From Malacoraja senta (taxonomy: Eukaryota): a DNA stretch of 64,000 bases. The notes below the pieces were generated by a model. It was not told where the DNA came from. It searched no databases and saw nothing but the letters and a program-made list of their open reading frames with translations. The stretch covers positions 5,580,001 through 5,644,000 of the forward strand of contig CM075989.1 in the NCBI GenBank assembly GCA_038087875.1, read 5' to 3'. Made by a program: the position numbers and the translations under genes. Below, in pieces: positions 1,671 through 64,000 of the stretch (its first letter is position 1; every line of letters begins with the position of its first letter).

Positions 1671-1724
1671 TTTCTGACCTGTCGCACATTTCCTCCACTT
1701 CCCTTAAACTGATCTCCCAATTTC

Positions 1725-1815
1725 TAGAAGGTAGACACAAAATGCTGGAGTAACTCAGCGGGACAGGCAGCAACTCTGGAGAGAAGGAATGGGTGACGTT
1801 TCGGGTCGAGACCCT
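1725..1815 (-). mobile_element. Short Penelope-type terminal-repeat element
   Basis: Matches the recurring arm ACACAAAATGCTGGAGTAACTCAGCGGG...GGTGACGTTTCGGGTCGAGACCC; 10-bp direct repeat TCCCAATTTC at 1715-1724 and 1816-1825. Confidence 0.7.
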
Positions 1816-1829
1816 TCCCAATTTCAAGT

Positions 1830-3355: not shown

Positions 3356-3616
3356 ACTAGTAAATTGCCCTGGTTGGTTCCAGATCAATCTTCAAACATA
3401 ATTTGACACCAAGCCCCTTGAAGATACATATTGGGACAAAATGGGTACGAAGGAACTGCAGATGCTGGTTTCAATCGAAGAGAGACACAAAATGCTGGAG
3501 TAACTCAGCGGGACAAGCAGCATATGTGGAGAGAAGGAATGGGTGATGTTTTGGGTCGAGACCCCTCTTCAGACCGATGTCAGGGGAGTGGGAGGTACAG
3601 AGATAGAATGTAGTAA

Positions 3617-4137
3617 AGGGGCTGTCCCGCTTGAGCGACCTAACTAGCGAGTTTAGAAGAGTTTGAAAAAATGACATGTTGAAGACCTCCTTCGACTATG
3701 TTGAAGACCAGCTACGACTAGCTACGACTAGCTTCGGGAAAATTGGACGCCGAATAGTGGAGAGTGAAGACGACCTCCTTCGATCTCCTTCGACCTATCT
3801 TCGACTATGATGAAGACTATCTACGACTACCTTCGACTACCTTCGACTACCCTCGATTACCTACGACTAACGTGCCGACCTACTACAACTAAACCTACGA
3901 GTAAAAAAAGTATCGATTTTTTCCATGGCGACCTTTTATTACTCGCGGGCATTTTTTAACATATTGAAAAAAAACGCCGCGACCTAGCTGACGCCTCGAG
4001 TACGCGGAGACCACTCTCGAGCATGAAGGAGAGTTACAAAGACCTCCTACGACCTCGTGTCGACCATGCCGCGAGTATGAGTCGAGGGCAAACTCGCCAG
4101 AACTCGCCGATTAGGTCGCCCAAGTGGGACAGGCCCT
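3617..4137. mobile_element. MITE, PIF/Harbinger-like (interior type B)
   Basis: TIRs AGGGGCTGTCCCGCTTGAGCGACCTAA / TTAGGTCGCCCAAGTGGGACAGGCCCT; flanks TAA (3614-3616) and TTA (4138-4140). Confidence 0.85.
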
Positions 4138-4389
4138 TTAGACTGATAGGGGAACTGGGAAGGGGAGGGGATGGAGAGAGAGGGAAAGCAAGGGCTACTT
4201 GAAGTTAGAGAAGTAAGTCAATGTTCATACTGCTGGGGTGTAAGCTACCCAAGCGAAATATGAGGTGCTGTTCCTCCAATTTATGCTGGGCCTCACTCTG
4301 ATAATGGAGGAGGCCCCGGAGAGAAAGGTCAGTGCGGGAATGAGAGAGGGTGTTAAAGTGCTGGGCAACCGGGAGATCAGGTAGGTTTA

Positions 4390-4716
4390 TGCCCTGTCCC
4401 ACGGTACGAGTTCATTCCAAGAGCTCCCCCGAGTTTTTAAATAATCAAACTCGTGGTAAGCACGGAGAATGAACGTAGCGGGTACGTCGGAGCTCGGGGA
4501 CGTCTCTTAGCGGCTCGTAACGCTAACGGCAGGTACTCGGGAAGACTCGCTAACGGCAGGTAAGCTCGGGAAGACTCGTGAAGATTTGTCAACGTTGAAA
4601 AATGTCCACGAGAGCCCCGAGTACCGACGAGTGGCCATTACCGTAAATCTCTGAGTTCGAATCAGGGCAAAGTCGGGAGAACTCTTGGAACGAACTCGTA
4701 CCGTGGGACAGGGCCA
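4390..4716. mobile_element. MITE, PIF/Harbinger-like (interior type C)
   Basis: Long TIRs TGCCCTGTCCCACGGTACGAGTTC / GAACTCGTACCGTGGGACAGGGCCA; TTA on both sides; removing the element plus one TTA rejoins the host Penelope coding sequence; close copy at 59068. Confidence 0.9.
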
Positions 4717-4905
4717 TTAGGCGGACTGAACGGAGGTGTTCAGCGAAACGATTGCCGAGCCTGCACTTGTTTTCGCCGATATTCAGGGGTCCACATTTGG
4801 GATATGTTGGCCAAAGGTTTGGTCCTGGGGATGGATCTTCAGCGATACAGAGAGATTCAGGGAGGGAACTAGCAACACAATGTATTGTGGATCGGGAACC
4901 TCATA

Positions 4906-4978
4906 GTGTGTAAGAAAGAACTGCAGATGCTGGTTTAAATCGAAAGTAGACACAAAATGCTGGAGTAACTCAGCGGGT
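4906..4978 (-). mobile_element. Truncated Penelope-type terminal-repeat element
   Basis: AAGAACTGCAGATGCTGG...CTCAGCGGGT flanked by 10-bp direct repeat GAACCTCATA (4896-4905, 4979-4988). Confidence 0.7.
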
Positions 4979-5158
4979 GAACCTCATACTGATAGATTGC
5001 TAATTTTCTGTGTAAGAAAATTATGGTTCATTTCCCCTTAAAACTCTTTCCTCTCACTTAATACTTATCTTTTTCATACCCCGACCACGAGATGAAGATT
5101 CGGACCATTAATGACACCTAATTTTATACACCTCTATCCTTCACTATCCTTCACTTTA

Positions 5159-6510: not shown

Positions 6511-6707
6511 TCTTTGAAATCAAAATCTCTGTCAATATAATGGGCCACTCTCATGTCGTTGCTGAATTTAACTTATAAAGTGTTGGAATAACTCAAAGGT
6601 TTAGGCAGCATCTGTAGTTTGGGTGTCAAGGGTTATGAGGAGAAGGCAGAAGAATGGAGTTGAGAGGGAAAGATAGATCAGCCATGATTGAATGGTGGAG
6701 TAGACTT

Positions 6708-7351
6708 ACATAGATACATAGAAAATAGGTGCAGGAGTAGGCCATTCGGCCCTTCGAGCCTGCACCGCCATTCAATATGATCATGGCTGATCATCCAACT
6801 CAGTATCCCGTACCTGCCTTCTCTCCATACCCCCTGATCCCCTTAGCCACAAGGGCCACATCTAACTCCCTCTTAAATATAGCCAATGAACTGGCCTCAA
6901 CTACCCTCTGTGGCAGAGAGTTCCAGAGATTCACCACTCTCTGTGTGAAAACGTTTTTCCTCATCTCAGTCTTAAAGGATTTCCCCCTTATCCTTAAGCT
7001 GTGTCCCCTTGTCCTGGACTTCCCCAACATCGGGAACAATCTTCCTGCATCTAGCCTGTCCAACCCCATAAGAATTTTGTATGTTTCTATAAGATCCCCT
7101 CTCAATCTCCTAAATTCTAGCGAGTATAAGCCAAGTCTATCCAGTCTTTCTTCATATGAAAGTCCTGACATCCTAGGAATCAGTCTGGTGAACCTTCTCT
7201 GCACTCCCTCTATGGCTATAATGTCCTTCCTCAGATTTGGAGACCAAAACTGTACGCAATACTCCAGTTGTGGTCTCACCAAGACCCTGTACAACTGCAG
7301 TAGAACCTCCCTGCTCCTATACTCAAATCCTCTTGCTATGAAGGCCAACAT
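6708..7351 (-). mobile_element. Young CR1 LINE, 5'-truncated
   Basis: Open 183-aa ORF2 C-terminus (LYRVLVRPQLEYCVQFWSP...RVVNLWNSLP), 3' UTR with 8-nt repeat tail, short TSD GACTT; inserted in an older CR1 tail. Confidence 0.92.
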
Positions 7352-10245: not shown

Positions 10246-10392
10246 AATGAAACTGCGAGTACCAACATCAACTAAGCTATGAACCACAAACTCTCTTGGT
10301 TACAGAAGAGATTTGTATTTGCACTAATATCGGATGTTTGAAAAATATATTGAGTTTTCCCTGTTATGCTGCTGCCATTAAGAATGTCATTG

Positions 10393-11090
10393 GTAGCCAA
10401 AAATGCTGGAGAAACTCAGCGGGTGAGGCAGCATCTATGGAACGAAGGAATAGGTATCGTTTCGGGTCGAGACCCGAAACGTCACCTATTCCTTCGTTCC
10501 ATAGATGCTGCCTCACAATAGACAATAGACAATAGACAATAGGTGCAGGAGTAGGCCATTCGGCCCTTCGAGCCAGCACCGCCATTCAATGTGATCATTG
10601 CTGATCATCCCCAATCAGTACCCCGTTCCTGCCTTCTCCCCATATCCCCTGACTCCGCTATTTTTAAGAGCCCTATCTAGCTCTCTCTTGAAAGCATCCA
10701 GAGAACCTGCCTCCACCGCCCCTCTGAGGCAGAGAATTCCACAGACTCACCACTCTCTGTGAGAAAAAGTGTTTCCTCGTCTCCGTTCTAAATGGCTTAC
10801 TCCTTATTCTTAAACTGCGGCCCCTGGTTCTGGACTCCCCCAACATCGGGAACATGTTTCCTGCCTCTAGCGTGTCCAAACCCTTAACAATCTTATATGT
10901 TTCAATGAGATATCCTCTCATCCTTCTAAACTCCAGAGTGTACAAGCCCAGCTGCTCCATTCTCTCAGCATATGACAGTCCCGCCATCCCGGGATTTAAC
11001 CTTGTAAACCTACGCTGCACTCCATCAATAGCAAGAATGTCCTTCCTCACCCACCTTCGATTTTTCCAGCATCTGCAGTTCTTTCTTAAA
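10393..11090. mobile_element. Fold-back Penelope-type short element with nested CR1
   Basis: 17-bp TSD CATTAAGAATGTCATTG (10376-10392, 11091-11107); inverted arms centred on CGTTTCGGGTCGAGACCCGAAACG. Confidence 0.8.
10517..11049 (-). mobile_element. CR1 LINE 3' fragment (subfamily with 7-nt CAATAGA tail)
   Basis: ORF KDILAIDGVQRRFTRL...RVVSLWNSLPQR; close to the copy at 41353. Confidence 0.9.
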
Positions 11091-11137
11091 CATTAAGAAT
11101 GTCATTGTTCCGTTTTCAGTCCATACGGCAATTAAAC

Positions 11138-12110
11138 TCTGGACGAGGGAATTGAAAGCAACATCTCCATGTTTGCGGATGACACTAAGCTGGGGGGCAG
11201 TGTTAGCTGTGAGGAGGATGCTAGGAGACTGCAAGGTGACTTGGATAGGCTGGGTGAGTGGGCAAATGTTTGGCAGATGCAGTATAATGTGGATAAATGT
11301 GAGGTTATCCACTTTGGTGGCAAAAACGGGAAGGCAGACTATTATTTAAATGGTGGCCGATTAGGAAATGGGGAGATGCAGCGAGACCTGGGTGTCATGG
11401 TACACCAGTCATTGAAAGTAGGCATGCAGGTGCAGCAGGCAGTGAAGAAAGCGAATGGTATGTTGGCCTTCATAGCAAGAGGATTTGAGTATAGGAGCAG
11501 GGAGGTTCTACTGCAGTTGTACAGGGTCTTGGTGAGACCACACCTGGAGTATTGCGTACAGTTTTGGTCTCCAAATCTGAGGAAGGACATTATAGCCATA
11601 GAGGGAGTGCAGAGAAGGTTCACCAGACTGATTCCTGGGATGTCAGGACTTTCATATGAAGAAAGACTGGATAGACTTGGCTTATACTCGCTAGAATTTA
11701 GGAGATTGAGAGGGGATCTTATAGAAACGTACAAAATTCTTATGGGGTTGGACAGGCTAGATGCAGGAAGATTGTTCCCGATGTTGGGGAAGTCCAGGAC
11801 AAGGGGTCACAGCTTAAGGATAAGGGGGAAATCCTTTAAGACCGAGATGAGGAAAAACCTTTTCACACAGAGAGTGGTGAATCTCTGGAACTCTCTGCCA
11901 CAGAGGGTAGTTGAGGCCAGTTCATTGGCTATATTTAAGAGGGAGTTAGATGTGGCCCTTGTGGCTAAGGGGATCAGGGGGTATGGAGAGAAGGCAGGTA
12001 CGGGATACTGAGTTGGATGATCAGCCATGATCATATTGAATGGCGGTGCACGCTCGAAGGGCCGAATGGCCTACTCCTGCACCTATTTTCTATGTTTCTA
12101 TGTATCTATG
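11138..12110 (+). mobile_element. Young CR1 LINE, 5'-truncated (RT C-terminus)
   Basis: Uninterrupted 280-aa ORF beginning at the RT catalytic motif FADD; full 3' UTR and tail; TSD TAAAC. Confidence 0.95.
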
Positions 12111-14646: not shown

Positions 14647-14862
14647 GTGTCGAAAGGAACTGCAGATGCTGGTTTATACCGAAGATAGATACAAAGTGCT
14701 GGAGTAACTCAGCGGGGTCAGGCAGCATCTCTGGGGAAAAAGGATGTGTGACGTTTCAGCTCGGGTCTGAAGGAGGGTCTCGACCCGAAACGTCACCCAT
14801 CCTTTTTCTCCAGAGATGCCGCCTCTCCCGTTGAGTTACTCCAGCACTTTGTGTCCATTTTT
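14647..14862. mobile_element. Fold-back Penelope-type short element
   Basis: Inverted arms; decayed TSD GATTCAAGAACCT / GGTTCGAGAACCT; hammerhead-like motif at 14763-14798 with 4-bp stem I (GGGT/ACCC) but core variant CUGAAGG. Confidence 0.75.
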
Positions 14863-16884: not shown

Positions 16885-17231
16885 TATGCTTGGCCTGGCC
16901 AAGCTGGCCATCCGCGTGCGGTCTGCCTGAGCCGGCTGCCAGCACCTTTCTGGGGTTAAGTCCGCGCCCGGGTGCTATTAGAAAGGAACCACGGGCACCC
17001 TGGGCGATTTCCGGGACCACTGGGCACCGCGGGGGGTGGAATGCATCCTTGACAAGGATTGTAATATAGTTGTTTAATATTGTATTTAGTTATGTATATA
17101 AGAATGGTACATAAGAATATTTGTTTGGATAATTGTGTGATTTTGTATTATGGTGGTGGGTTGGTTTGGTATTACTTTGTATTGTATATATTATTATAAT
17201 AAATGATTAAACTTATTTTTGTTTAAAAAAA
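16885..17231 (+). mobile_element. Tx1-like LINE 3' fragment
   Basis: Frameshifted translation LGLAKLAIR...VRARVLLER...GDFRDHWAPRGVECILDKDCNIVV*; AT-rich UTR with AATAAA and A-run. Confidence 0.6.
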
Positions 17232-17361
17232 GGATCTTTCTGCGGCTGCGCGGTGCATCCCGCCAGGCCTATGTACAGTTTACGTCACGTGTTATAGACA
17301 AGGGGATTCATCCAAGAGAAGCACATTTGACAAGGGTTAGCTTGCACAGTTATTAAACAAA

Positions 17362-17537
17362 AGTGCTGGAGAAACTCAGCGGGTGCAGCAGCATCTATGG
17401 AGCGAAGGAAATAGGCAACGTTTCGGCCCGAAACGTTGCCTATTTCCTTCGCTCCATAGATGCTGCTGCACCCCGCTGAGTTTCTCCAGCACTTTTGTCT
17501 ACCTTCGATTTTCCAGCATCTGCAGTTCCTTCTTGAA
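17362..17537. mobile_element. Fold-back Penelope-type short element (young)
   Basis: Essentially perfect hairpin of ~70-bp arms centred on CGTTTCGGCCCGAAACG plus an unpaired 3' extension; 17-bp TSD CACAGTTATTAAACAAA (17345-17361, 17538-17554). Confidence 0.88.
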
Positions 17538-17717
17538 CACAGTTATTAAACAAATAGGATCAGTTTGATCAAGGTGTGGGTGAAGTTTCAGTTTCCTCCT
17601 GAATGTTTGCTCAATTTTCCCGCATCACTTGGGATTATATCCACAGCACTGCAATAGAAAAATGACTGGCCTGTATGAGATGGGGTAAAATCACAGTGCT
17701 CACTAACCTTAAAAACT

Positions 17718-18432
17718 TGTGGTGAATTATATTAAAAGCACTTTTCAACAAAAAAATTATAAAATCAATGTTAAAATAATCTCTGTAGTTGTTAATACTC
17801 AACTGGATCCCGATCCTAAATTAATAATATTGGGCATGTCAGAACAATACGTAAAACTTACAACAAACCAAAGAAATTTCCTTGACTACAGTATAATAAT
17901 TGGGAAAAAATTAATATTAAAATTTTGGAAAAATCCTGCAACCCCCACAATTAAGATGTGGATTATGGAGATGTCCGAGACCTTATATTTGGAAAAAATT
18001 AGATATGTCTTAATTAACAAACCAGAATTATTTACTAAAATATGGTCTCCATTTATAGATTATCTGAAGGGGTAGACTGGGCCGGCACGGAGGCCTGACT
18101 GAAACCTGAACCCAGGACTGGATGAATAGTTACGTTTTCTGACCTATGGACCTATCTCCTAAGTTGTATTATTGATAGTTTATCTTACTTTTTTAATTTC
18201 TTCTTTTTATTTCTTTATTTTTATTATCTATAAATATAAATAAATAATTAGAGGCAACGTTAATATGTAACCGATAAAGGAGGACCCCAGCTACTTTGGT
18301 AACTGGGTACCCGGAACCCTGGATACTTAATATGTAACCGTTATACAAAGTTTGTATTGGGTTGGACTATGATATGCAGATACCTCTAATAAAAATGTAC
18401 AATAAAAAAATATATAAAAAATAAAAATAAAA
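17718..18432 (+). mobile_element. L1-clade LINE 3' fragment
   Basis: 118-aa ORF ...KKLILKFWKNPATPTIKMWIMEM...LEKIRY...FTKIWSPFIDYL typical of fish-type L1 ORF2 ends; A-rich tail. Confidence 0.8.
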
Positions 18433-22043: not shown

Positions 22044-22520
22044 TCATCTATAGAAGTTTGTAAGAGTCTTTGGAGACATTACGAATTCTCTCAGTCTCTT
22101 CAGGAAGTGGAGGTGTTGGTGAGCCACCTTAGTTGACAGATCATTGTGGTTGGTCAACGACAGATGATTGGTAATATTAACGCCAAGAAACTTGAAGCTC
22201 CATACCTTTTCCACTTTGGCACCATTGATGCTGGTTGGGGCATGTACTTCCCCAATCAGCCTGAAGTTGAAAACTAGCTCCTTTGTCCTGCTGACATTGA
22301 GGGAGAGGTTGTTGTCCTGACACCATGTTACTAAGTGCCCCATCTTGTACTCCTTATTCACGACTCCGCCCACCACAATGGTATCATCTGCAAACCTGTA
22401 GATGGAGTTAGAGCCCAATTTGGCCGTTACCGTGAGAGTACGGGGAGCACAGTAGGGGATTGAGAACACATCCTTGCAGGGCACCGGTGTTGAGGATTAT
22501 TACAGATGAGGTGTTGTCAC
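22044..22520 (-). mobile_element. Old Rex1/Babar-type RT fragment
   Basis: IYRFADDTIVVG...WCQDNNLSLNVSRTKEL...FKFLGVNI...LTNFYR. Confidence 0.75.
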
Positions 22521-23035
22521 TGATTGTGGAGTGGCCCCACAGCAGTAGCGTCCACGTCGCGGGGCTGGAATCTGGAAGTATCCCCAGCTAATTCTGCTAC
22601 CACCATCATGTATTGCAACAAGTGATGGCACCCACTGATTGTCGCCGGAAGCTCAGGACGGACGATGACAGCGGTCAACACTTGAAACATGGAAGATGGA
22701 CATGAAAGAAGAAGACGGATTGTGGACTATGGGTCAGAAAGTTGAGTATCCAGTGGCAGAAGGGGGAGCTGATTTCTAGGCATGGGAGTTTGGAGATAAG
22801 TTTGGATGGGAGAATAATTTTGAAAATGAAGCTATAGTCCATAAATGGGAATCTAACTTTGGAGTCTTGTTGTCTAGGTATATCAGAGATGAGGTTAGGC
22901 CCACGGAGATGGTGTCTGCTATGGATCTGGTATGACGGGAAGAAAACTGCAGAGATAAGGTGGCAAACATCTTTCCCCAGGGTAGAGGAATCAAAAACTA
23001 GAGGCCATAGGTTTAATGTGATTGAGGAAAGATTA

Positions 23036-26260: not shown

Positions 26261-26868
26261 AACTATTTGAATTTTTTTTTTTAAACAAAATATTTATTTT
26301 TGGAAAGTCCTCATAATTGTAAGCTGCAAGAATAGTTTCTTGACAGAAGAATATGAATTACTTAGAGAGCGAGTAGGGCTTTGGATGAAACTGGGTTCCC
26401 GACCTAGCCTGGATGGGATGAATAGTGTCTCTTGTGCTGGAACCTTTACTAATTCCATTAGTTGTCTGGATAGGAATTTGATGTGAATGTGTTAAGTGTT
26501 GGCGGACTTTGCAGGGTGGAAATCTTCACGGACATTTTTACCATATCCCAGCACTTAGTAACCAAAGGAATTCTTAACCATAACACATTCAGGTGCCTTA
26601 CAGAAATGATACTGAACTCTACCCTTGTGGTTTCGAAGATGATCTAAATCCACAGCTCAGTTCCTGCCTCCGCACATATCTGTTATCCCACTGCGTCGCA
26701 ATTAGAAACTGTAGCCTTAATTAACAGAGACTTTGTGTGTAGGAATGAAGATGCTGGTTTACATCGAAGATCATCCAGAACGTTTAATATTTCAGTCTGA
26801 AGAAGGGTCTCAACCCAAAACGTCGCCCATTCCTTCTATCCAGAGATGTTGCCTGACCCGCTGAGTAA

Positions 26869-31349: not shown

Positions 31350-33996
31350 TCAGTAAAAGGCATCGCTCCCACCAGGTGGGTCTCCGCCAAGAATGCGCCG
31401 CACGGCGTCGCTGCACAGGTCAGCCTGCCACGTTTTGTCTTAGACGGTCATTGATTGGACTATTCCAGCGCACCATGGAACAGCTAGGGCGTCGCTGAGC
31501 ACGACCTGCACCCTCCACCAAAGTCCTAGACAGGGCTCGTAAAACAATCTCAAGCTCAACCCCAAGAAGTGTTGGTTCCGGGTCCCGGAAGTCACTTACG
31601 TTGGTCACGTTTTCACGGCAGGGGGTTTAAAGCCTGACCCCCAGAAAACATCAGCAGTCACCGAGATGCCCGCTCCTACTGACGTTCCCGGCCTGCAGCG
31701 CCTTCCGGGCCTGGTCAATTACCTGGGGAAGTTCATACCTGACCTCAGCGAACTGAGTGCTCCCCTGAGGGAGCTGATCAAGAAGGACTCCGCATGGGTC
31801 TGGCTCCCGCATCACCAGTCGGCGTTCGTGGCTCTGAAGTCCAAGCTCACACACACACCGACTCTCAAGTTCTTCCGATCTGCACAGACCAATTGTCCTC
31901 ACTTGTGATGCCTCTAAGTTCGGTCTCGGTGCCGCATGTCTGCAGCTTTATGACGGCCTGCAGCTACCTGTCTCCTAAGCTTCTCGCACCATGACCCCTG
32001 CCGAGCAACGTTATGCACAGATCGAGAAGGAGCTACTTGCCGTGGTGTTCGCCTGCTCCAAGTTTAGGGATTACATTCTGGGCAACACCTTCACCATTGA
32101 GATGACCACCAGCCACTGGTCACTATTCTGAACAAGCCTATCCATGTCGCCTCTTCCCGGTTGCAGCGGATGATGCTGCAGCTCCAGCGTTTCACGTTCC
32201 GGATTGTGTACCGCAAGGGCAAAGATATGTTTGTGGCCGACACATTGTCCCGTGCGCCGCTCCCTTCAGTTGCCCGCCACCCGTACGAATCCTCTGACCT
32301 GATGGTACTGAATGTTAACATTGTTCCATCCCAGCAGATGCAGTCCCTGGTCAAACACACTGCTGATGATCCTGCCCTGCAACAACTTGCGGACGTTATC
32401 CGCCGTGGTTGGCCTGACCAACGCTCTTCCCTGCTGGCTGTTGCCGTGCCCTACTCCTGGTTCGTGATGAACTAGTGCTACATGACGGCGTGGTGGTGAA
32501 GGGTCACAAGGTCGTGGTGCCGGCCGCTCTGCGGGATCACTATTTTCAAACTGCACACAATGGCCACCCCGGTGTGGAGGCCACTTTGTCCCAGGCCCAG
32601 AGCCAATTCTACTGGCCAGGTATGGCTCAGGACATCCGTGACAGGGTCTCCGTTTGCGCTGCCTGTAACAGTCTCCTGCCTCATCAGCAGCGCCAGCCCT
32701 CCTGCAGCAGCCGGCCCCCGAGCCTACCGTGGATGTATATTGCCACGGACCTTTTCGAATGGCGTGGCAAGCATTTCCTGGTCCTGGTGGGCTCATACTC
32801 CAGTTGGTTTGAGGTGGATCAGCTGCCTTCCATCACCTCTGCCGCCGTCATCGGGAAGCTTCGCCACCACTTTTGCACCTTCGGACCCCCGGTGACCCTC
32901 CCAATCGGACAACGGCAGCCAGTTCTCCAGCGCCGAGTTCCGTGCCTTCGCTGCCCGTTGGAACTTTCGTCACATCACCAGCAGCCCTGAGTATCCGCAG
33001 AGCAACGGCCTTGCGGAACGCGCCGTCCGCAGTGCCAAGGAGCTGCTGGAACACTGCCGCCTTTCACATTCCGACTTCTACCTTGCCCTCCACAACCTCC
33101 GCAACATTTCCCCGCGACCCCGCGCTCGATTCACCTGCCCACGCCTCATGTCCGCACCACTAGACCACCTCTCCCTGTCTCGCAACAGTCCCTCAAACCC
33201 TCGGTCCAGAACCTGCAGGTGGTTCGGATGCAGTCCCCCTCCGGGCACTACAGGCTGGCCGTAGTGGTTGGTAATGCCGGCTCTCCCCGGTCATACCTCG
33301 TCGACTATGAGGGCGCTATCTACCGTCGGTCACGCCAGCACCTCCTGCTCGTCAACGAGCCTCCTCCGCCTCCCGCGGACCCGTTTCAGCCACCTATCCC
33401 TTCCATTCTGCCCGAGGCTCCGCCAGCCCTGTCACTCCTCGCATGTCGCGGAAACTGCCCTCCCAGCTCTCTATGCCCCACGCTCACAAGCCTCTTTCCC
33501 CTGCCTTGCCTGCCAGCGTGCCCGTTTCGCCTCGCTGTTCTCTCCATCTCCGGTTCGTTCCCCGCCCGGCTCTCCCACCTCTTTCCCTGACTCTGTCCCT
33601 TCTGCTCCTGCGGTTGAGGGGAATGCGGGTTGCGCACCCACTCTGGCCGGTTGGTCAAGCCGCCTGTCCGTTACGGGGAGCTCGCTTAGCTGTGTTATGA
33701 CACGATTAACTGTTCCCAGCGCGGTTTGTAATCCTAGCGTATGAGCCGTGGTCGCTCTGTGTATTGCCATGTTTTTGTTTCCAAGAGGAGGGATGTAGAT
33801 CAGTGCATGTTCCTTTAACTTAGTGACCTCACCACTACTAACCACTCCCCATTGTCTCTCCTATAATTGTAAGGTCCCCACCTCCAGCCCGCTCTCTAGC
33901 TCCAGTGATGACCACGGACAGCTATTGCATAGTGTGTGTTAGTGATTTAATAAACCATCAGTAAAAGACTCTGTGTAGGAACCAAGTCATTTTGCA
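31350..33996 (+). mobile_element. Decayed Ty3/Gypsy LTR retrotransposon (RT C-terminus, RNase H, integrase, PPT, 3' LTR)
   Basis: Frameshifted pol: VTYVGHVF...GLVNYLGKFIPDLS (RT), TCDASKFGLGA...YAQIEKELLAVVF (RNase H), AHNGHPG...[16 protein letters not shown] (integrase); RT-RH-IN order. Confidence 0.9.
33794..33996 (+). repeat. Putative 3' LTR of the Gypsy element
   Basis: Polypurine tract AAGAGGAGGGA (33783-33793) directly followed by TGT; TATAA and AATAAA inside; right boundary (…TTTGCA) uncertain. Confidence 0.7.
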
Positions 33997-35022: not shown

Positions 35023-35267
35023 CAGACACCTGGGGCAAGTTTGCCCAGGTGATCTCAACGTGTACAGAGTCAAAACCACATGAATAAACTGTGAAGTGCA
35101 GATAGGAAAAAGACACAAAGTGCTGGTGTAACTCAGTGGGTCAGGCAGAACATAGATAGGTGATATTTTGAGTCAGGTCCCTTGTTCAGACTGAATATAG
35201 TGGGGGTGGGGGAGAAGAAAGTGGAAGAGAAGAGAGGCAGGGCAAGGCCTAGCAGGTAATAGGCCGA

Positions 35268-35479
35268 AGATCAAAGATAGACGCAAAATGCTGGAATAAT
35301 GCAGTGGTTCAGGCAGCATCTCTGGAGAGAAGGAATAGGCGAAGTGTCTGAAGAAGGGTCTCGACACAGAATGTCACCCATTCCTTCTCTCCAGAGATGC
35401 TGCCTGTCCCACTGAGTTACTCCAGCATCTTGTGTCCATCTTCGGTGTAAACCAGCATCTGCAGTTCCTTCCCACACAT
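35268..35479. mobile_element. Fold-back Penelope-type element nested in an older Penelope-type repeat
   Basis: 14-bp TSD AGGTAATAGGCCGA (35254-35267, 35480-35493); inverted arms; decayed CTGAAGAAGGGTCTCGAC motif. Confidence 0.8.
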
Positions 35480-36089
35480 AGGTAATAGGCCGACACAGGA
35501 GAGGAGCTTCGTGTTTTTTTTTCCTAAACCAACGACATCAGTCCCTTATTTGTCCAAGTGCATCTCGGAGCTGTGCTGAAATGAGAAGGAGAGTCTAACA
35601 GTTCAGGGAAGAGAGAAAAGCAGTATTAACGTTAAAAATAGATAACCGTGTAGCAGAACTGACCATTTCTGAGACAAGCGAGAAAAGCAATTTACCTGAA
35701 ATTGTTCAGTCATTAATAAGTCACAAAGACTACAATATGTCCGTGTGGAAGATGAGATGTTTTTCTCAAGTTTATATCCTCTACATCAATGGAGCATTTA
35801 GAGGGCTATAGACGGAGAAGTGGGAGTAGAGGTGGGAGTGGGATGAAGATTAAAGCACTGGGCAGCTGGATCCCCCTCAGTCACCCATGCCATTGAGTCA
35901 CAGGTTCAATACCAGTGCTCCATCAGTGTACAATAAAGTGAGAGGACTGAAGAATCGACATGTTATATATTTTCCAATGGGGAATGAAGCAAAAAGCTCA
36001 CCCATCACTGGAACACTTCCTATCCCAGCTGTAAGAAATTCCTTGCTTGACTGAATTTGGAATTTTCATGCAAGTCTGCATTAGAAATG

Positions 36090-53370: not shown

Positions 53371-53954
53371 TTCTTTGGAATCAGGGCCGACCTAAAGCCG
53401 ATTGGACCGATTGCTCCCAATTGGGCCCAGCGACAAAGGGGGCCCCGCGCCAGTAATCGACTCTCGGCTCGGGTAGATCTTTCCCGGGTGGAGGGGGGAG
53501 AGAGAGGGGTGGAGAGAGAGCAGAGGGGTGGAGAGAGAGCAGAGGGGTGGAGGGGGAAGAAAGGTGTAGACGGGGAGGAGGGTGTGAGGGGTAATGGAGA
53601 AGGGGGAAAAAGGGGGAGGTGGGTCATTCCCTCATGGTCCCAGGGCAGCGCTCCCGCCCCTCCAGTCGCCGTGCATCACCCAGACAGCCCCAGCTCCACC
53701 CCTCTCTCTCTCCGGGAAGACGCGGTGAACACCAAAGATTATCGGCTCTATGATCTTTGGTGAACACTACAGGGAGGGACGGGCCGGGGTTGGAGCAACG
53801 TTTACAAACATCGGCCTCAGCTCACACCCGGACCCCGGCATCTGCTCCCACCGCCGGCCCTCTCCCTCCCTTCTCTCCTTCCCTTCCCTCCCTTCCCTTC
53901 TTCCCTCCCTCCCTTCTCTCCTTCCCTTCCCTCCCTCCCTCCCTTCTCTCCTTC

Positions 53955-54144
53955 CCTCCCTCATTCCTCTCTCTCTTTTCCATTCTCTCCTTCGTTCTAT
54001 CCATTCTTTCTGTCCTTCCCTATTCTACTTTCTCTACTTCCCACCCTCCCTTCTGTGGGAAGTAGAGAAAGTAGAATAGGGAAGGACAGAAAGAATGGAT
54101 AGAACGAAGGAGAGAATGGAAAAGAGAGAGAGGAATGAGGGAGG
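53955..54144. repeat. Perfect 89-bp inverted repeat with 12-nt spacer
   Basis: 53955-54043 is the exact reverse complement of 54056-54144. Confidence 0.95.
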
Positions 54145-57107: not shown

Positions 57108-57579
57108 TATCTCTGCTCAGATGAATAATGTTTCTGATTTGTATCATTTCGGGCAAAGCAAGACTTAAAATATTGCCTGGATGCTTAAAATATACCTAAG
57201 TATTAAAATTAAACTATAAAAAGAAAAAAAGGCAGTCCTGTCAGGATTGTATTAAATATGTATGCGTATGGCTAGATTCAATTCCATTCATCTTCTCTTA
57301 TGAATGGATTAAGATATAAAGCCGATAGGTATGGTAATGTAGCTGGCAATATATCTCCACTGACACTGTGGTATGAAGGCAAGAGACATCATTATATTTC
57401 AGATGAACTATGCTGTTCATTGTTGTCTCCCCCTTCCTCCACCACTCCTCTCTCCTCGTCTCCAAATGGAGTATAACTTCACAGGCCGATCGACCGGCAG
57501 GTCGCCGAGAACAGAACGAGACCCGGCAACTCAGCAGGCCAGCCACCAAAAGTTGAGAGGAACCTCCACTGTCAGATTG

Positions 57580-57955
57580 AAGCCAAACACTTTAACTCCC
57601 CTTCCCATTCCTACACCGACCTTTCTGCCCTGGGCTTCCTCCACTGTCAGAGTGAGGCCAAATGCAAATTGGAGGAACAGCACCTCATATTTCACTTGGG
57701 CAGCATACACCCCAGCGGTATGAATATAGATTTTTCTAATTTAATGTAACCCCTGCATCCCCTCTCTCTCCGTCTCTCCCTCACACTAGTCGCCTTACTG
57801 GTTTCACTGTCGTCTTGTTGAGTTTTGCCATCTATATAAATCGTTGTCACCAAGCCCACAGCCAACAATGGACCATTGTGGGCTCCACCTTTCCTTGATC
57901 ACCGTTACTTTTTGCAAATCTTTCATTCATTCGATCAACATCTCACTATATCACC
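57580..57955 (+). mobile_element. Penelope-like GIY-YIG 3' fragment
   Basis: AKHFNSPSHSYTDLSALGFLHCQSEAKCKLEEQHLIFHLGSIHPSGMNIDF, matching 4205-4386. Confidence 0.8.
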
Positions 57956-58902: not shown

Positions 58903-59710
58903 CAGCCAGAAGAAGGGTCCCAATCCAAAACATTACCCATCCATGTTCTCCAGAGATGCTGCCTGACCCACTGATTAGCTCCAGCACTGATGTACTTTTG
59001 TGTAAACTAGCATCTGCAGTTCCTTGTTTCTATATTTTAACTGTGAAATCTCGTCAAGGAATGCTTATGGCCCTGTCCCACGGTACAAGTTCATTCCAAG
59101 AGCTCTCCTGAGTTTAAAAAAAAAATCAAACTCCTGGTAAGCACGGAGAATGAACGTAGCGGGTACGTCGGAGCTTGGGGACGTCTCTTAGCGGCTCGTA
59201 ACGCTAAAGGCAGGTACTTGGGAAGACTCGCTAATGGCAGGTAAGCACGGGAAGACTCGTGAAGATTTTTCAACATGTTGAAAAATGTCCACGAGAGCCC
59301 CGAGTACCGCCGAGCGGCCATTACCGTAAATCTCCGAGTTCGAATCAGGGCAAACTCGGGAGAGCTCTTGGATTGAACTCGTACCGTGGGACAGGGCCAT
59401 TACTTTGAAGTTCTCCTCTTTCCAGATACGTTTGAAGAAGGGTCCCGACCCGAAACATCACCTATCCATGTTCTCCAGAGATGCTGTCTGACCTGTTGAG
59501 TTGCGCCAGCACTTTGTGTCCATTTGTGTCAACCAACATCTGCAGTTCCTTGTTCCTATATTATGACTGTTCCGCTGTGAAATCCCCACAAGGTATCCCT
59601 ACTTTGAAGAAGTTCTCCTCCTCTCTGCAGTTCAGTCTGAAGGAGGATCACCTATCCATTTCCCCAGAGATGCTGCCTGACCCACTGAGTTACTCCAGCA
59701 CTTTGTGCCC
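58903..59710 (+). repeat. Tandem ~200-bp Penelope-type units, each starting with a decayed hammerhead motif
   Basis: Motif starts at 58907, 59432 and 59637; spacer CTGTGAAATC...TACTTTGAAG...TTCTCCTC is repeated; first spacer interrupted by a MITE. Confidence 0.7.
59068..59399. mobile_element. MITE, PIF/Harbinger-like (type C)
   Basis: TIRs TGGCCCTGTCCCACGGTAC / GTACCGTGGGACAGGGCCA; TTA TSD; same family as 4390. Confidence 0.9.
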
Positions 59711-61012: not shown

Positions 61013-62077
61013 CTGAAGAGCATAGAGTGACAATCTACACCGACCAAAGCAGGGATTTTCACATCATTGATAAAATTGATTGATTGATACCGAATTGTCA
61101 CGTGCACTTGGTACAGTAAAATTCTTTGTTTTGAATGCAGTACACAAGTATGCAAAGAGTGGCCATGTAACGGGCGCCAACAAACGTACACAAGTATTCA
61201 AGGTAGTCCCTCTTCATTCTCTCCCTCCCCCCCTCCCCGTCCATCTTTGTTCTTGGCACCGCACCCCACCCGCACCCCCACCCCCCCACACAGGGTCCCT
61301 CATAGTTCTCTCGGCGGCAGGTCCTTGACTGACATATTCTCACTGTATTCTGAACGCTAACTTAATAAACCGATCAGCAATGAATTCTCACAGGAGAATG
61401 TGGTTTAATAAAGCCGTTAAGCTTTTCTCTTCCCATGTATTGAAAGCGGATAAAGTATTGTATCAGTGGCTGGGTTTTGTGGATCAGGATATGTTTATGT
61501 GACATTTCAATACACTGTGACAACATCAAATGGCAGATGCAGAAGCCAAAAATAGAACTTGTATTTTTTAAATCTCACGCTTCACACCCGACGCAAATTC
61601 ATCCAGATTTTGACAACGTTTTAAATCTTGTTCATTCTTTTATTTTTGTTGAATTCTTTGCTCCGCAGTATTTTACTGAAGAAGGGTCTCGAACCGAAAT
61701 GTCCGCTGTCCCTTCTGTACAGAGATGCTGTCTGACCCGCTGAGTTACTCCAGCAATTTTTTGTCTAACTTTGAATTAAACCAGCATCTGCAATTCACTC
61801 CTACATATTTTACCAAATGGATGTTAGGTGCCTCAACTACAATTTTTATTGATTGCAAAACCTCTCATTCTATTTAATCAAGACCAGCATGATATACAAA
61901 CGGAAAATGATGGAAAACACTCAGCAGTTCAGGCAGTAAAAATGGAACGAGTTAAAGAGACTTTGTCATAACACAGATGGAGAGAAATCACGTTAGCATA
62001 AGTTGCAGAGAAGGTGAGGGAGGGATGAATACGATAAAAACTGATATTTCTGTTAGAGTGAGGCCAAATATATGTAT

Positions 62078-62240
62078 TTAAGAAGGAACTGCAGATGCTG
62101 GAAAATCGAAGGTAGACAAAAGTGCCTGGAGAAACTCAGCGGGTGCAGTCTGAAGAAGAGTATCGGCCCGAAACGTTGCCTATTTCCTTCGCTCCATTGA
62201 TGCTGCTGCACCCGCTGAGTTTCTCCAGCACTTTTTACTA
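62078..62240. mobile_element. Fold-back Penelope-type element retaining the hammerhead core
   Basis: 14-bp TSD CCAAATATATGTAT (62064-62077, 62241-62254); motif AGU-CUGAAGA-A-GAGUAUCGGCCC-GAAAC-GUU at 62147-62180. Confidence 0.85.
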
Positions 62241-62259
62241 CCAAATATATGTATACTGT

Positions 62260-62620
62260 AGAGTAACTCAGCGGGACAGGCAGCATCTCTGGAGAGAAGG
62301 AATGGGTGACGTTTCAGGTCAAGACCCTTCTTCAGACTGAAGTCAGGGGAGTGGGTGGTACACAAATAAGGAAGTGTATAGATAATGAAGTGTAAGGTGT
62401 GAAAACAGGACAAAGGGAATGGAGATCAATGAACATGTGGAATAGATCATTGTTAGTTGGGGGAAGGTAACAACAAAGCAAACAGAGATAAAATGTAGTC
62501 GGAAAACCGGGAAAGGGGAGGGGATGGAGAGAGAGGGAAAGCAATGGCTACTTGAAGTTAGAGAAGTCAATGTTCATACCGCTGGGGTCCAAGCAAAATA
62601 TGAAGTGCTGTTGCTCCAAT
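62260..62620 (-). mobile_element. Penelope-like 3' end
   Basis: Colinear with 3500-3613 and 4141-4280 (terminal repeat plus end of GIY-YIG). Confidence 0.75.
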
Positions 62621-62689
62621 ATGTTGGCATGGACATAATGGGCCAAAGGGCCTGTTTCTGTGCAGGACAACTCCATGGTTGTTCCTTTA

Positions 62690-63235: not shown

Positions 63236-63826
63236 AGATATTTATAGGAACGCAAGTGACTGCAGAGAGTGGTGGAGTCAGCCCAGTCCATAGTCGAGCA
63301 GCGGTAGAGTTGCTGCCTCACAGCGCCAGAGACACGGGTTCGATCCTCACTACGAAACCAAGATGGTGGCATCAATCATCAATGATCCGCACCATTTTGG
63401 CCATGCCCTTTACTCACTGCTGCCATCAGGCAGGAGGTACAGAAGCCTGAAGTCCCACACCACCAGATTCAGGAACAGCTACTCCCCCCCCCCCCCACGC
63501 CACGGGTACCATGCAACCCCGTGCTACCTGCTCCATGGTCGGATAGTCGGCGACTAAACCGTCTCCCCCAGCTGGTTTGCCAGGTGAGGAGGGGGCTGTG
63601 GACCCCCAGCAGGACCAAAGACAAGACCCGTCAAAGGGCGGATGAGCTCCTAGCGAGCCAACGGCCGTCCACACTTCAGTAGAAGTTGCGATCACTGTCG
63701 TACACGGCATTGTAAGGCACCACCGTGCCCGTTGATGTTTTCAACAATGATGATGATGATGATGATGATGACACTTTCCTACTACCTACGAGGTTCTTAA
63801 ACTGACCTACACAACCCTAACCCTGG

Positions 63827-64000
63827 ATACACAAAAATGCTGGAGAAACTCAGCGGGTGCAGCGGCATCTATGGAGCGAAGGAGATAGGCAACGTTTCGG
63901 GCCGAAACATTGCCTATCTCCTTCGCTCCATAGATGCTGCTGCACCCGCTGAGTTTCTCCAGCATTTTTGTGTACCTTCGATTTTCCAGCATTTGCAGTT
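63827..64000. mobile_element. Fold-back Penelope-type element (cut by window end)
   Basis: Near-perfect hairpin of ~72-bp arms centred on CGTTTCGGGCCGAAAC; same subfamily as 17362. Confidence 0.85.

Follow-up and report, generated by a model that had tools for sequence, protein, structure and literature searches.

Hairpin stumps of a Penelope-like retrotransposon in Malacoraja senta: anatomy, copy-specific junctions and a possible origin by priming from both target strands

Two studies (PMC11167929, PMC8557442) still call it unvalidated how Penelope-like elements (PLEs) form their inverted copies and how they finish the second strand. PLE hammerheads are mostly solo motifs from truncated copies, and opposite-strand motif pairs 100-700 bp apart were noted in 2014 (PMC4209133). 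In D. virilis the intron whose end falls at helix I (PMC4209133) lies 46 nt downstream of the transcript start. In vitro, a lizard PLE cuts both strands and extends them, works without hammerhead cleavage and begins copying internally at two sites, one at either end of the tail; inverted copies are not explained in the accessible part of this Anolis Poseidon study (PMC11167929). How does a hairpin insertion at 17345-17554 of the window, the whole 64,000-nucleotide stretch of Malacoraja senta DNA analysed here, compare with these elements? The data directly support its PLE identity, retrotransposon insertion with target-site duplications (TSDs) of variable length, a lineage-specific focal insertion and junctions that are particular to each copy. 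On balance, the best explanation of the whole is that these hairpins are PLE stumps formed by priming from both nicked strands.

Anatomy, age and identity of the insertion

The focal insertion (17345-17554) is a stem of ~69 bp with one bulge and a one-sided tail of 39 nt, with exact 17-bp repeats outside (Table 1); the last 5 nt of the left TSD (17345-17361) double as the start of the left arm. As RNA the copy folds at -140 kcal/mol (z = -21.9), and 0 of 200 shuffles did equally well. Arms are numbered so that +1 is the predicted hammerhead cut site, which in the tailed focal arm would fall between 17437 and 17438. In the young subfamily, hammerhead stem II together with the GAAAC box forms the micro-palindrome at the centre; the upstream CTGAAGA box is present at 62150 and in the loose ends of 420-1026 contigs per sequencing run.

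Contigs of 4 of 23 listed sequencing runs aligned to 17060-18050 (991 bp) and provided an empty-site comparison. In organisms B and C, one contig each goes from 17344 to 17538 with contiguous record positions. Because this join is gapless, 193 bp (the insert plus one repeat copy) are absent from both, and the flanks of the two contigs differ at 23/451 and 29/454 letters. In organism A the left junction is filled and identical over 17060-17368, and the fourth run gave no informative piece. The search for orthologous empty sites, named as a check in the original prediction, has thus been carried out for the focal copy and found the site empty in two other organisms. The focal 17-bp repeat is therefore a true TSD and, given the flank differences, the insertion is younger than a split at roughly 5-6% divergence.

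All seven TSDs listed in the original prediction (10-17 bp) are exact: 17 bp at 17345 and 10376/11091, 14 bp at 35254, 42305 and 62064, and 10 bp at 1715 and 4896. A further exact one of 16 bp (40496/40605) was missing from that list, and the lengths, once tabulated (10, 10, 14, 14, 14, 16, 17 and 17 bp), are as variable as had been claimed. Repeats of at least 10 bp occur at 8 of 27 loci tested, compared with 1.8% of 396 random pairs, and the TSDs are AT-rich (31% GC versus 46% in the 50-nt flanks). Exact TSDs of 10-17 bp together with the empty site bear out the proposal of target-primed retrotransposition with long TSDs of variable length.

Which element is responsible? The hairpins are very probably extreme 5'-truncated insertions of an EN+ PLE, cut down to the pLTR end. 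The suspected Penelope origin is supported by arms joined through a 3' UTR to GIY-YIG remnants at 3447-4800 and 62256-62623. These remnants, and a third at 57567-57749, match the C-terminus of the GIY-YIG endonuclease, with the best named protein matches in Rhinoraja, Leucoraja and Mobula, which would suit a batoid host. The third remnant (60 aa) is 65% identical to a Mobula protein that combines YIDD with a CxxxxCxxC linker and has a GIY-YIG domain slightly under the Pfam cut-off; used as a query, this protein retrieved 63 longer ones, most of them with an RT domain. The relative P0003 has a Zn-finger-like cysteine linker and is 56-68% identical to the window remnants; the linker itself is absent from the window. 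Linkers of the CxxxxCxxC type mark Neptune/Nematis elements (as described in the accessible part of PMC8557442), and the element would be Neptune-type by its nearest named relative. No RT-domain sequence and no full-length PLE copy were found in the window; for the 60-aa remnant, a Pfam search returned nothing and a comparison with solved structures gave no match. A UTR or ORF link is seen for the older subfamily and none was found for the young (focal) one, whose ORF link is presumed from similarity. The stumps had been called ORF-less, which holds for each stump itself but not for the family: same-family arms are joined to PLE coding remnants, and so a separate non-autonomous family is not needed. 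A pattern scan with a 17-mer gave 19 matches in viral contigs; scans for further copies gave 0 and 0 in metagenome contigs and 0 in prokaryote genomes.

In the window the family comprises about 40 arm segments, of older subfamilies and of the young one that includes the focal copy, and covers about 7% of the sequence (4751 bp in 31 hand-bounded segments). Most insertions are the pLTR alone, 123-212 bp. Between 39,188 and 93,195 contigs per run match the 991-bp stretch, which includes other repeats. The copy at 10376 reaches ~700 bp because a LINE fragment (about 10519-11049) is nested in its right arm and ~30 bp are missing; the hairpin at 63828 runs past the window edge and is therefore outside the TSD check. 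In the PLE at 3447-4800 the coding remnants lie at 4187-4378 and 4724-4798, and two unrelated repeats are inserted.

Table 1. Features of the focal insertion and of related copies in the window
Feature	Positions	Strand	Basis or remark
Left TSD, 17 bp	17345..17361	.	exact repeat; single copy at the empty site in two other organisms
Tail-less inverted arm	about 17357..17426	-	antisense pLTR, about +64 back to hammerhead stem II
Junction	17420..17434	+	natural micro-palindrome, 7 bp / 1-nt loop
Tailed arm	about 17428..17498	+	sense pLTR: 3' half of minimal hammerhead, then arm
Unpaired PLE 'tail', about 39 nt	17499..17537	+	fold and arm comparison
Right TSD, 17 bp	17538..17554	.	exact repeat; empty-site comparison
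Hairpin, 17-bp TSD	10376..11107	+	junction in stem II, loop from tail-less arm
Older hairpin, 14-bp TSD	35254..35493	+	tailed arm the longer, begins at -30
Short hairpin, 14-bp TSD	42305..42455	-	junction +17/+21
Hairpin, 14-bp TSD	62064..62254	-	tail-less arm exceeds tailed by about 60 nt; 3-nt microhomology
Hairpin cut by window end (locus 63828)	63826..64000	+	centre as in focal copy, opposite loop base
Older hairpin	14652..14861	-	exact 7-bp repeat in the flanks, or by eye 11 bp allowing one mismatch
Older hairpin, no clear TSD	40125..40364	+	both arms end at -29/-30, short spacer
Older hairpin, no clear TSD	42122..42307	-	end interrupted by the 42305 insertion
Hairpin-type pair, no TSD found	26741..26866	-	tail only plus long tail-less arm, 20-nt spacer
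Hairpin-type pair, no TSD found	47726..47870	+	long tail-less arm plus tail only
Solo tail-less arm, 10-bp TSD	1715..1825	-	
Solo tailed arm, 10-bp TSD	4896..4988	-	
Solo tail-less arm, 16-bp TSD	40496..40620	+	
Longer 5'-truncated PLE	3447..4800	-	tail, arm, hammerhead, 3' UTR, GIY-YIG coding remnants
Longer 5'-truncated PLE	62256..62623	-	arm, hammerhead, ~210-nt 3' UTR, last ~23 ORF codons (62551-62619)
PLE endonuclease C-terminal coding remnant, 60 codons	57567..57749	+	

Several smaller features of these copies deserve a record. At 35254, 42305, 49340 and 62064 the insertion is within or immediately next to an older family member, perhaps through a preference for the family's own sequence. 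In two old hairpins a short stretch is duplicated where the tail-less arm ends on the outside (35268-35285 and 40125-40145), which resembles priming slippage. The old arms at 42245-42307 and 59625-59707 apparently both lack the same ~15 nt of the hammerhead; the missing stretch runs from the loop of stem II as far as the cut site and has a 3-nt microhomology at its borders. A 20-nt piece at 62050-62069 (+) is identical at 19/20 positions to the PLE ORF just upstream of the 62256-62623 break; it sits inverted beyond the 62064 insertion and suggests local inversion of an older copy. A repeat with short terminal inverted repeats (3614-4140, 4373-4720 and 26867 onward) interrupts PLE copies three times and is probably a true MITE-type family.

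Hammerhead, arm ends and junctions

In sense orientation, a minimal type I hammerhead motif stands at the start of a full arm (19 matches in the window, 0 in 5 shuffles). Among 18 aligned cores 88.9% of cells are paired; covariation stayed within the shuffle range (71/500 shuffles), and the Rfam hammerhead search gave no match at E up to 1 in the window or up to 10 in 40200-40300. The motif fits the published minimal hammerheads of PLEs (core boxes, stem II and palindromic helix III). It has, like those of metazoan PLEs, CUGANGA and GAAA boxes, an extra base before stem II, a G-C first pair of stem II and a palindromic minimal helix III, and its helix I is only 2 bp, as described for D. virilis (accessible part of PMC4209133). 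Cleavage of the window hammerheads is a prediction, and no Rfam model matches them. The hairpins also drew sub-threshold microRNA matches in Rfam, and a CPEB3 (HDV-like) ribozyme model matched at 22523-22598 (+), with 37.8 bits versus a gathering score of 35, next to a LINE-like coding fragment on the opposite strand (22044-22496).

Is the template RNA cut by this hammerhead, as had been suggested as a possibility? The arm ends argue against it. Among 27 5' ends whose position is set by a TSD or by the opposite arm, none lies within 3 nt of the cut site and 21 lie upstream of it. The template RNA was therefore uncut at the hammerhead, since most cDNAs cross the scissile bond, and an uncut template is also found in vitro for the lizard PLE (accessible part of PMC11167929). 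Those 21 ends fall between -35 and -4; nine of the 27 are at -35 to -26, five in stem II, and six downstream of the cut. The pile-up in -35 to -4 has p 3e-6 against a uniform distribution (14/16 per locus, p about 0.001), values that overstate the certainty because ends were hand-read and short arms under-detected, BLAST favouring longer arms and so inflating the pile-up. Thirteen arms or loci with neither TSD nor partner lie outside the 27 (3449, 7450, 20130, 20754, 24390, 29140, 35111, 49286, 49340, 58909, 59434, 59630 and 62256), and about six of them appear to continue into the UTR. The pile-up at the hammerhead's 5' border may come from structural stalling or from run-off near the transcript start. 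A splice acceptor or cap-derived G at -30 (AG at -31/-30) was considered and set aside, being indistinguishable from an allele in the long copy 3449. The 3' ends form two groups, one at about +60 to +76 for tail-less arms and one at about +95 to +100 for tailed arms, and both occur in hairpins and in TSD-bounded solo arms.

Eleven head-to-head hairpins are found in the window, with 10 different junctions. A common centre is found in 17345 and 63828, but their unlike loop bases and subfamily sites point to a recurrent hot spot, not to amplification of a single master; the proposal that each hairpin is made anew at insertion is thus supported by the window copies. Breakpoints had been placed in or beside stem II, which is indeed a hot spot, but a second one lies at the hammerhead's 5' border, and both overlap natural micro-palindromes.

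The tail-less arm is the longer in 7 of the 11 hairpins (10376, 14654, 26741, 42305, 47730, 62064 and 63828, the asymmetry of the last resting on one base), the tailed arm in two (17345 and 35254), and in two the arms are level with a short spacer (40130 and 42120). Within the five TSD-verified hairpins the tail-less arm is longer in three and the tailed arm in two. In other genomic copies, 11 of 14 centre-skipping joints among those listed are asymmetric, 7 of them in one direction and 4 in the opposite one, with the tailed side and the letters between mostly unread; 'goes back' joints 17450>17420, from short contigs that defy interpretation, stand outside these counts. Arm-versus-arm identity, named earlier as a check, does not discriminate, the own arm being the best match in 4 of 9 hairpins.

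Three unrelated features of the window are mentioned for completeness. A perfect palindrome at 53954-54144 (90-bp arms, no mismatch, ~11-nt loop, CT-rich sequence) is either a recent fold-back event or an assembly artefact; LINE 3' fragments at 6707-7351 and 11460-12104 form an inverted pair (645 nt, 99% complementary); and a frame at 32418-32990 (+) resembles, by eye, an LTR-retrotransposon integrase fragment.

How the two arms may be made

We propose that a GIY-YIG nuclease would make two nicks, one per strand and 10-17 bp from each other, at an AT-rich site, and that each nicked 3' end would prime reverse transcription separately inside uncut RNA. One priming, at the distal start (about +95 to +100), would give the tailed arm, and a second one, from the proximal start at about +60 to +76, the tail-less arm. 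Both cDNAs would usually halt in the hammerhead or at its 5' border (-35 to -4), owing to RNA structure or to run-off near the transcript 5' end. Head-to-head joining, in many cases on a natural micro-palindrome, and repair would follow; priming from only one end would leave a solo arm with a TSD. The hairpin would be a by-product. The two-priming step seems somewhat probable to us, and separate priming from two strands is preferred because it is the single model that covers both asymmetries, the spacers, the two 3'-end classes and the solo arms. All its ingredients except joining have been seen in vitro (PMC11167929), in a Poseidon-clade element, the window family being Neptune-type by its relative. 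The scheme draws on 11 hairpins, five of them TSD-verified, with hand-read ends. What counts against it is that the focal copy itself fits fold-back, that a central deletion after insertion also gives asymmetry, and that in the young hairpins the arms share subfamily sites (5/5), as fold-back also predicts.

Could a single priming suffice? Fold-back was the route originally put forward: a tail-primed cDNA would fold on the micro-palindrome, prime itself back to about +64 and later suffer central deletions. The focal copy suits it well, with its junction exactly on a 7-bp natural palindrome and its loop base from the tailed arm, and 35254 likewise has the longer tailed arm. However, if a tail-primed cDNA folds back, the tail-less arm has to lie within the extent of the tailed one. 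It is doubtful as a general route because in 7 of the 11 hairpins the tail-less arm has sequence absent from the tailed arm, among them 62064, 42305, 14654, 26741 and 47730. The loops at 10376 and 63828, moreover, read in the tail-less arm's orientation, and a separate reason is needed for the copy-back to stop at the second start site. At site +32, where each of the 27 old arms that include it has either A or T, the arms are discordant in 3 of 4 old hairpins; this site was chosen post hoc (about 0.007 after correction for 80 sites), and most other diagnostic sites agree between paired arms. Altogether we consider fold-back unlikely.

A similarly low probability attaches to an alternative that concerns the template and can be combined with any junction mechanism. 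Here the young subfamily would be copied from a dedicated short non-autonomous PLE RNA of ~130 nt, retrozyme- or SINE-like, that starts just upstream of the hammerhead. The nine 5' ends at -35 to -26 are consistent with such an RNA, as are the loose-end consensus of four runs, which decays upstream of about -33, and the young subfamily's lack of a UTR or ORF link. Older arms of the same family nevertheless continue into UTR and ORF (3447-4800, 62256-62623), no head-to-tail array is seen among the window copies, and an ordinary transcript would give the same ends by run-off from its upstream pLTR.

Self-priming of an antisense transcript, proposed for rotifer PLEs and accompanied there by palindromes at inverted junctions (accessible part of PMC3846280), is in our view the more improbable still. 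The RNA's 3' end would fold and prime a sense tailed arm, so that loop and extra sequence come from the tail-less arm, which predicts the majority pattern (tail-less arm longer in 7/11). It misfits 17345 and 35254 as well as the solo tailed and solo tail-less arms with TSDs, and the in vitro work uses sense RNA (accessible part of PMC11167929), antisense RNA being a supposition. Taken alone, the focal copy cannot separate two-strand priming, fold-back with deletion and antisense self-priming. A MITE-type DNA transposon or a single amplified hairpin master is suggested by the inverted arms and very high copy number and is extremely improbable: the TSD varies from 10 to 17 bp, the termini are asymmetric, junctions are copy-specific, solo arms occur and the sequence is that of a PLE pLTR, while the fixed-length TSD and symmetric fixed termini that were looked for are absent, as the description 'not MITEs' had it.

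Returning to priming from two strands, might it be the rule and not the exception? Tentatively, and with more doubt than confidence, PLE integration might normally consist of two independent primings, one per nicked strand, at two internal start sites. These would sometimes use different RNA molecules or pLTR copies, and initiation in an upstream pLTR would yield short run-off cDNAs like a strong-stop product. If so, batoid genomes would hold a very large natural record of this unresolved integration step and would receive a steady supply of new perfect hairpins. A literature search found no paper on twin priming in PLEs.

Comparison with known systems

The eleven head-to-head pairs match the published pattern of EN+ PLE insertions, and the inverted partial terminal repeat was rightly taken for a Penelope trait. 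Shared with these insertions are the head-to-head inverted pLTR, a variable TSD, heavy 5' truncation and palindromes at the inverted junction (accessible parts of PMC3846280, PMC8557442 and PMC2377424), as well as a tail of 30-40 bp on one side only (accessible parts of PMC8557442 and PMC11167929), 39 nt in the focal copy. The published TSDs are 8-10 bp (accessible parts of PMC3846280, PMC8557442 and PMC2377424), whereas here they reach 14-17 bp; a further difference is that the window copies are mostly the pLTR alone, in a family that makes up about 7% of the window. As a discovery this is modest, because the structure is the published PLE insertion pattern: what is new is a further PLE family, the inverted pLTR, one-sided tail, variable TSD and junction palindromes having been published already. 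No paper on this elasmobranch family was found in the literature searched; Repbase/Dfam entries may include it, and published supplements may contain elasmobranch motifs. Its short, numerous copies with long exact TSDs offer a test bed for junction statistics, which could separate two-strand priming, cDNA fold-back and antisense self-priming. For annotation they carry a warning, as such hairpins can be mistaken for MITEs or microRNA precursors.

The Anolis Poseidon element studied in vitro has the same two internal RT starts bounding the tail, AT-rich targets, an uncut hammerhead RNA as template and extension of both strands (accessible part of PMC11167929). It differs in that its ORF starts at stem II (same source), while none of four window arms translated has an ATG-led frame starting there, and in that the nearest named protein of the window family has a Neptune/Nematis-type cysteine linker. 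Animal non-LTR retrozymes are likewise short, non-coding, hammerhead-bearing and pLTR-related, but they are head-to-tail tandem repeats (accessible part of 10.64898/2026.07.22.740005), whereas the window copies are dispersed hairpins or TSD-bounded solo arms. Tandem head-to-tail units and monomer ends at the cut site (0/27) were both absent from the window. In L1 twin priming, cDNA is primed from either end of the target, each cDNA copies its own part of a single RNA, and the resulting inversion is joined by microhomology. Here, in contrast, both cDNAs would copy the same ~100 nt from two fixed starts, and the product would be a palindrome.
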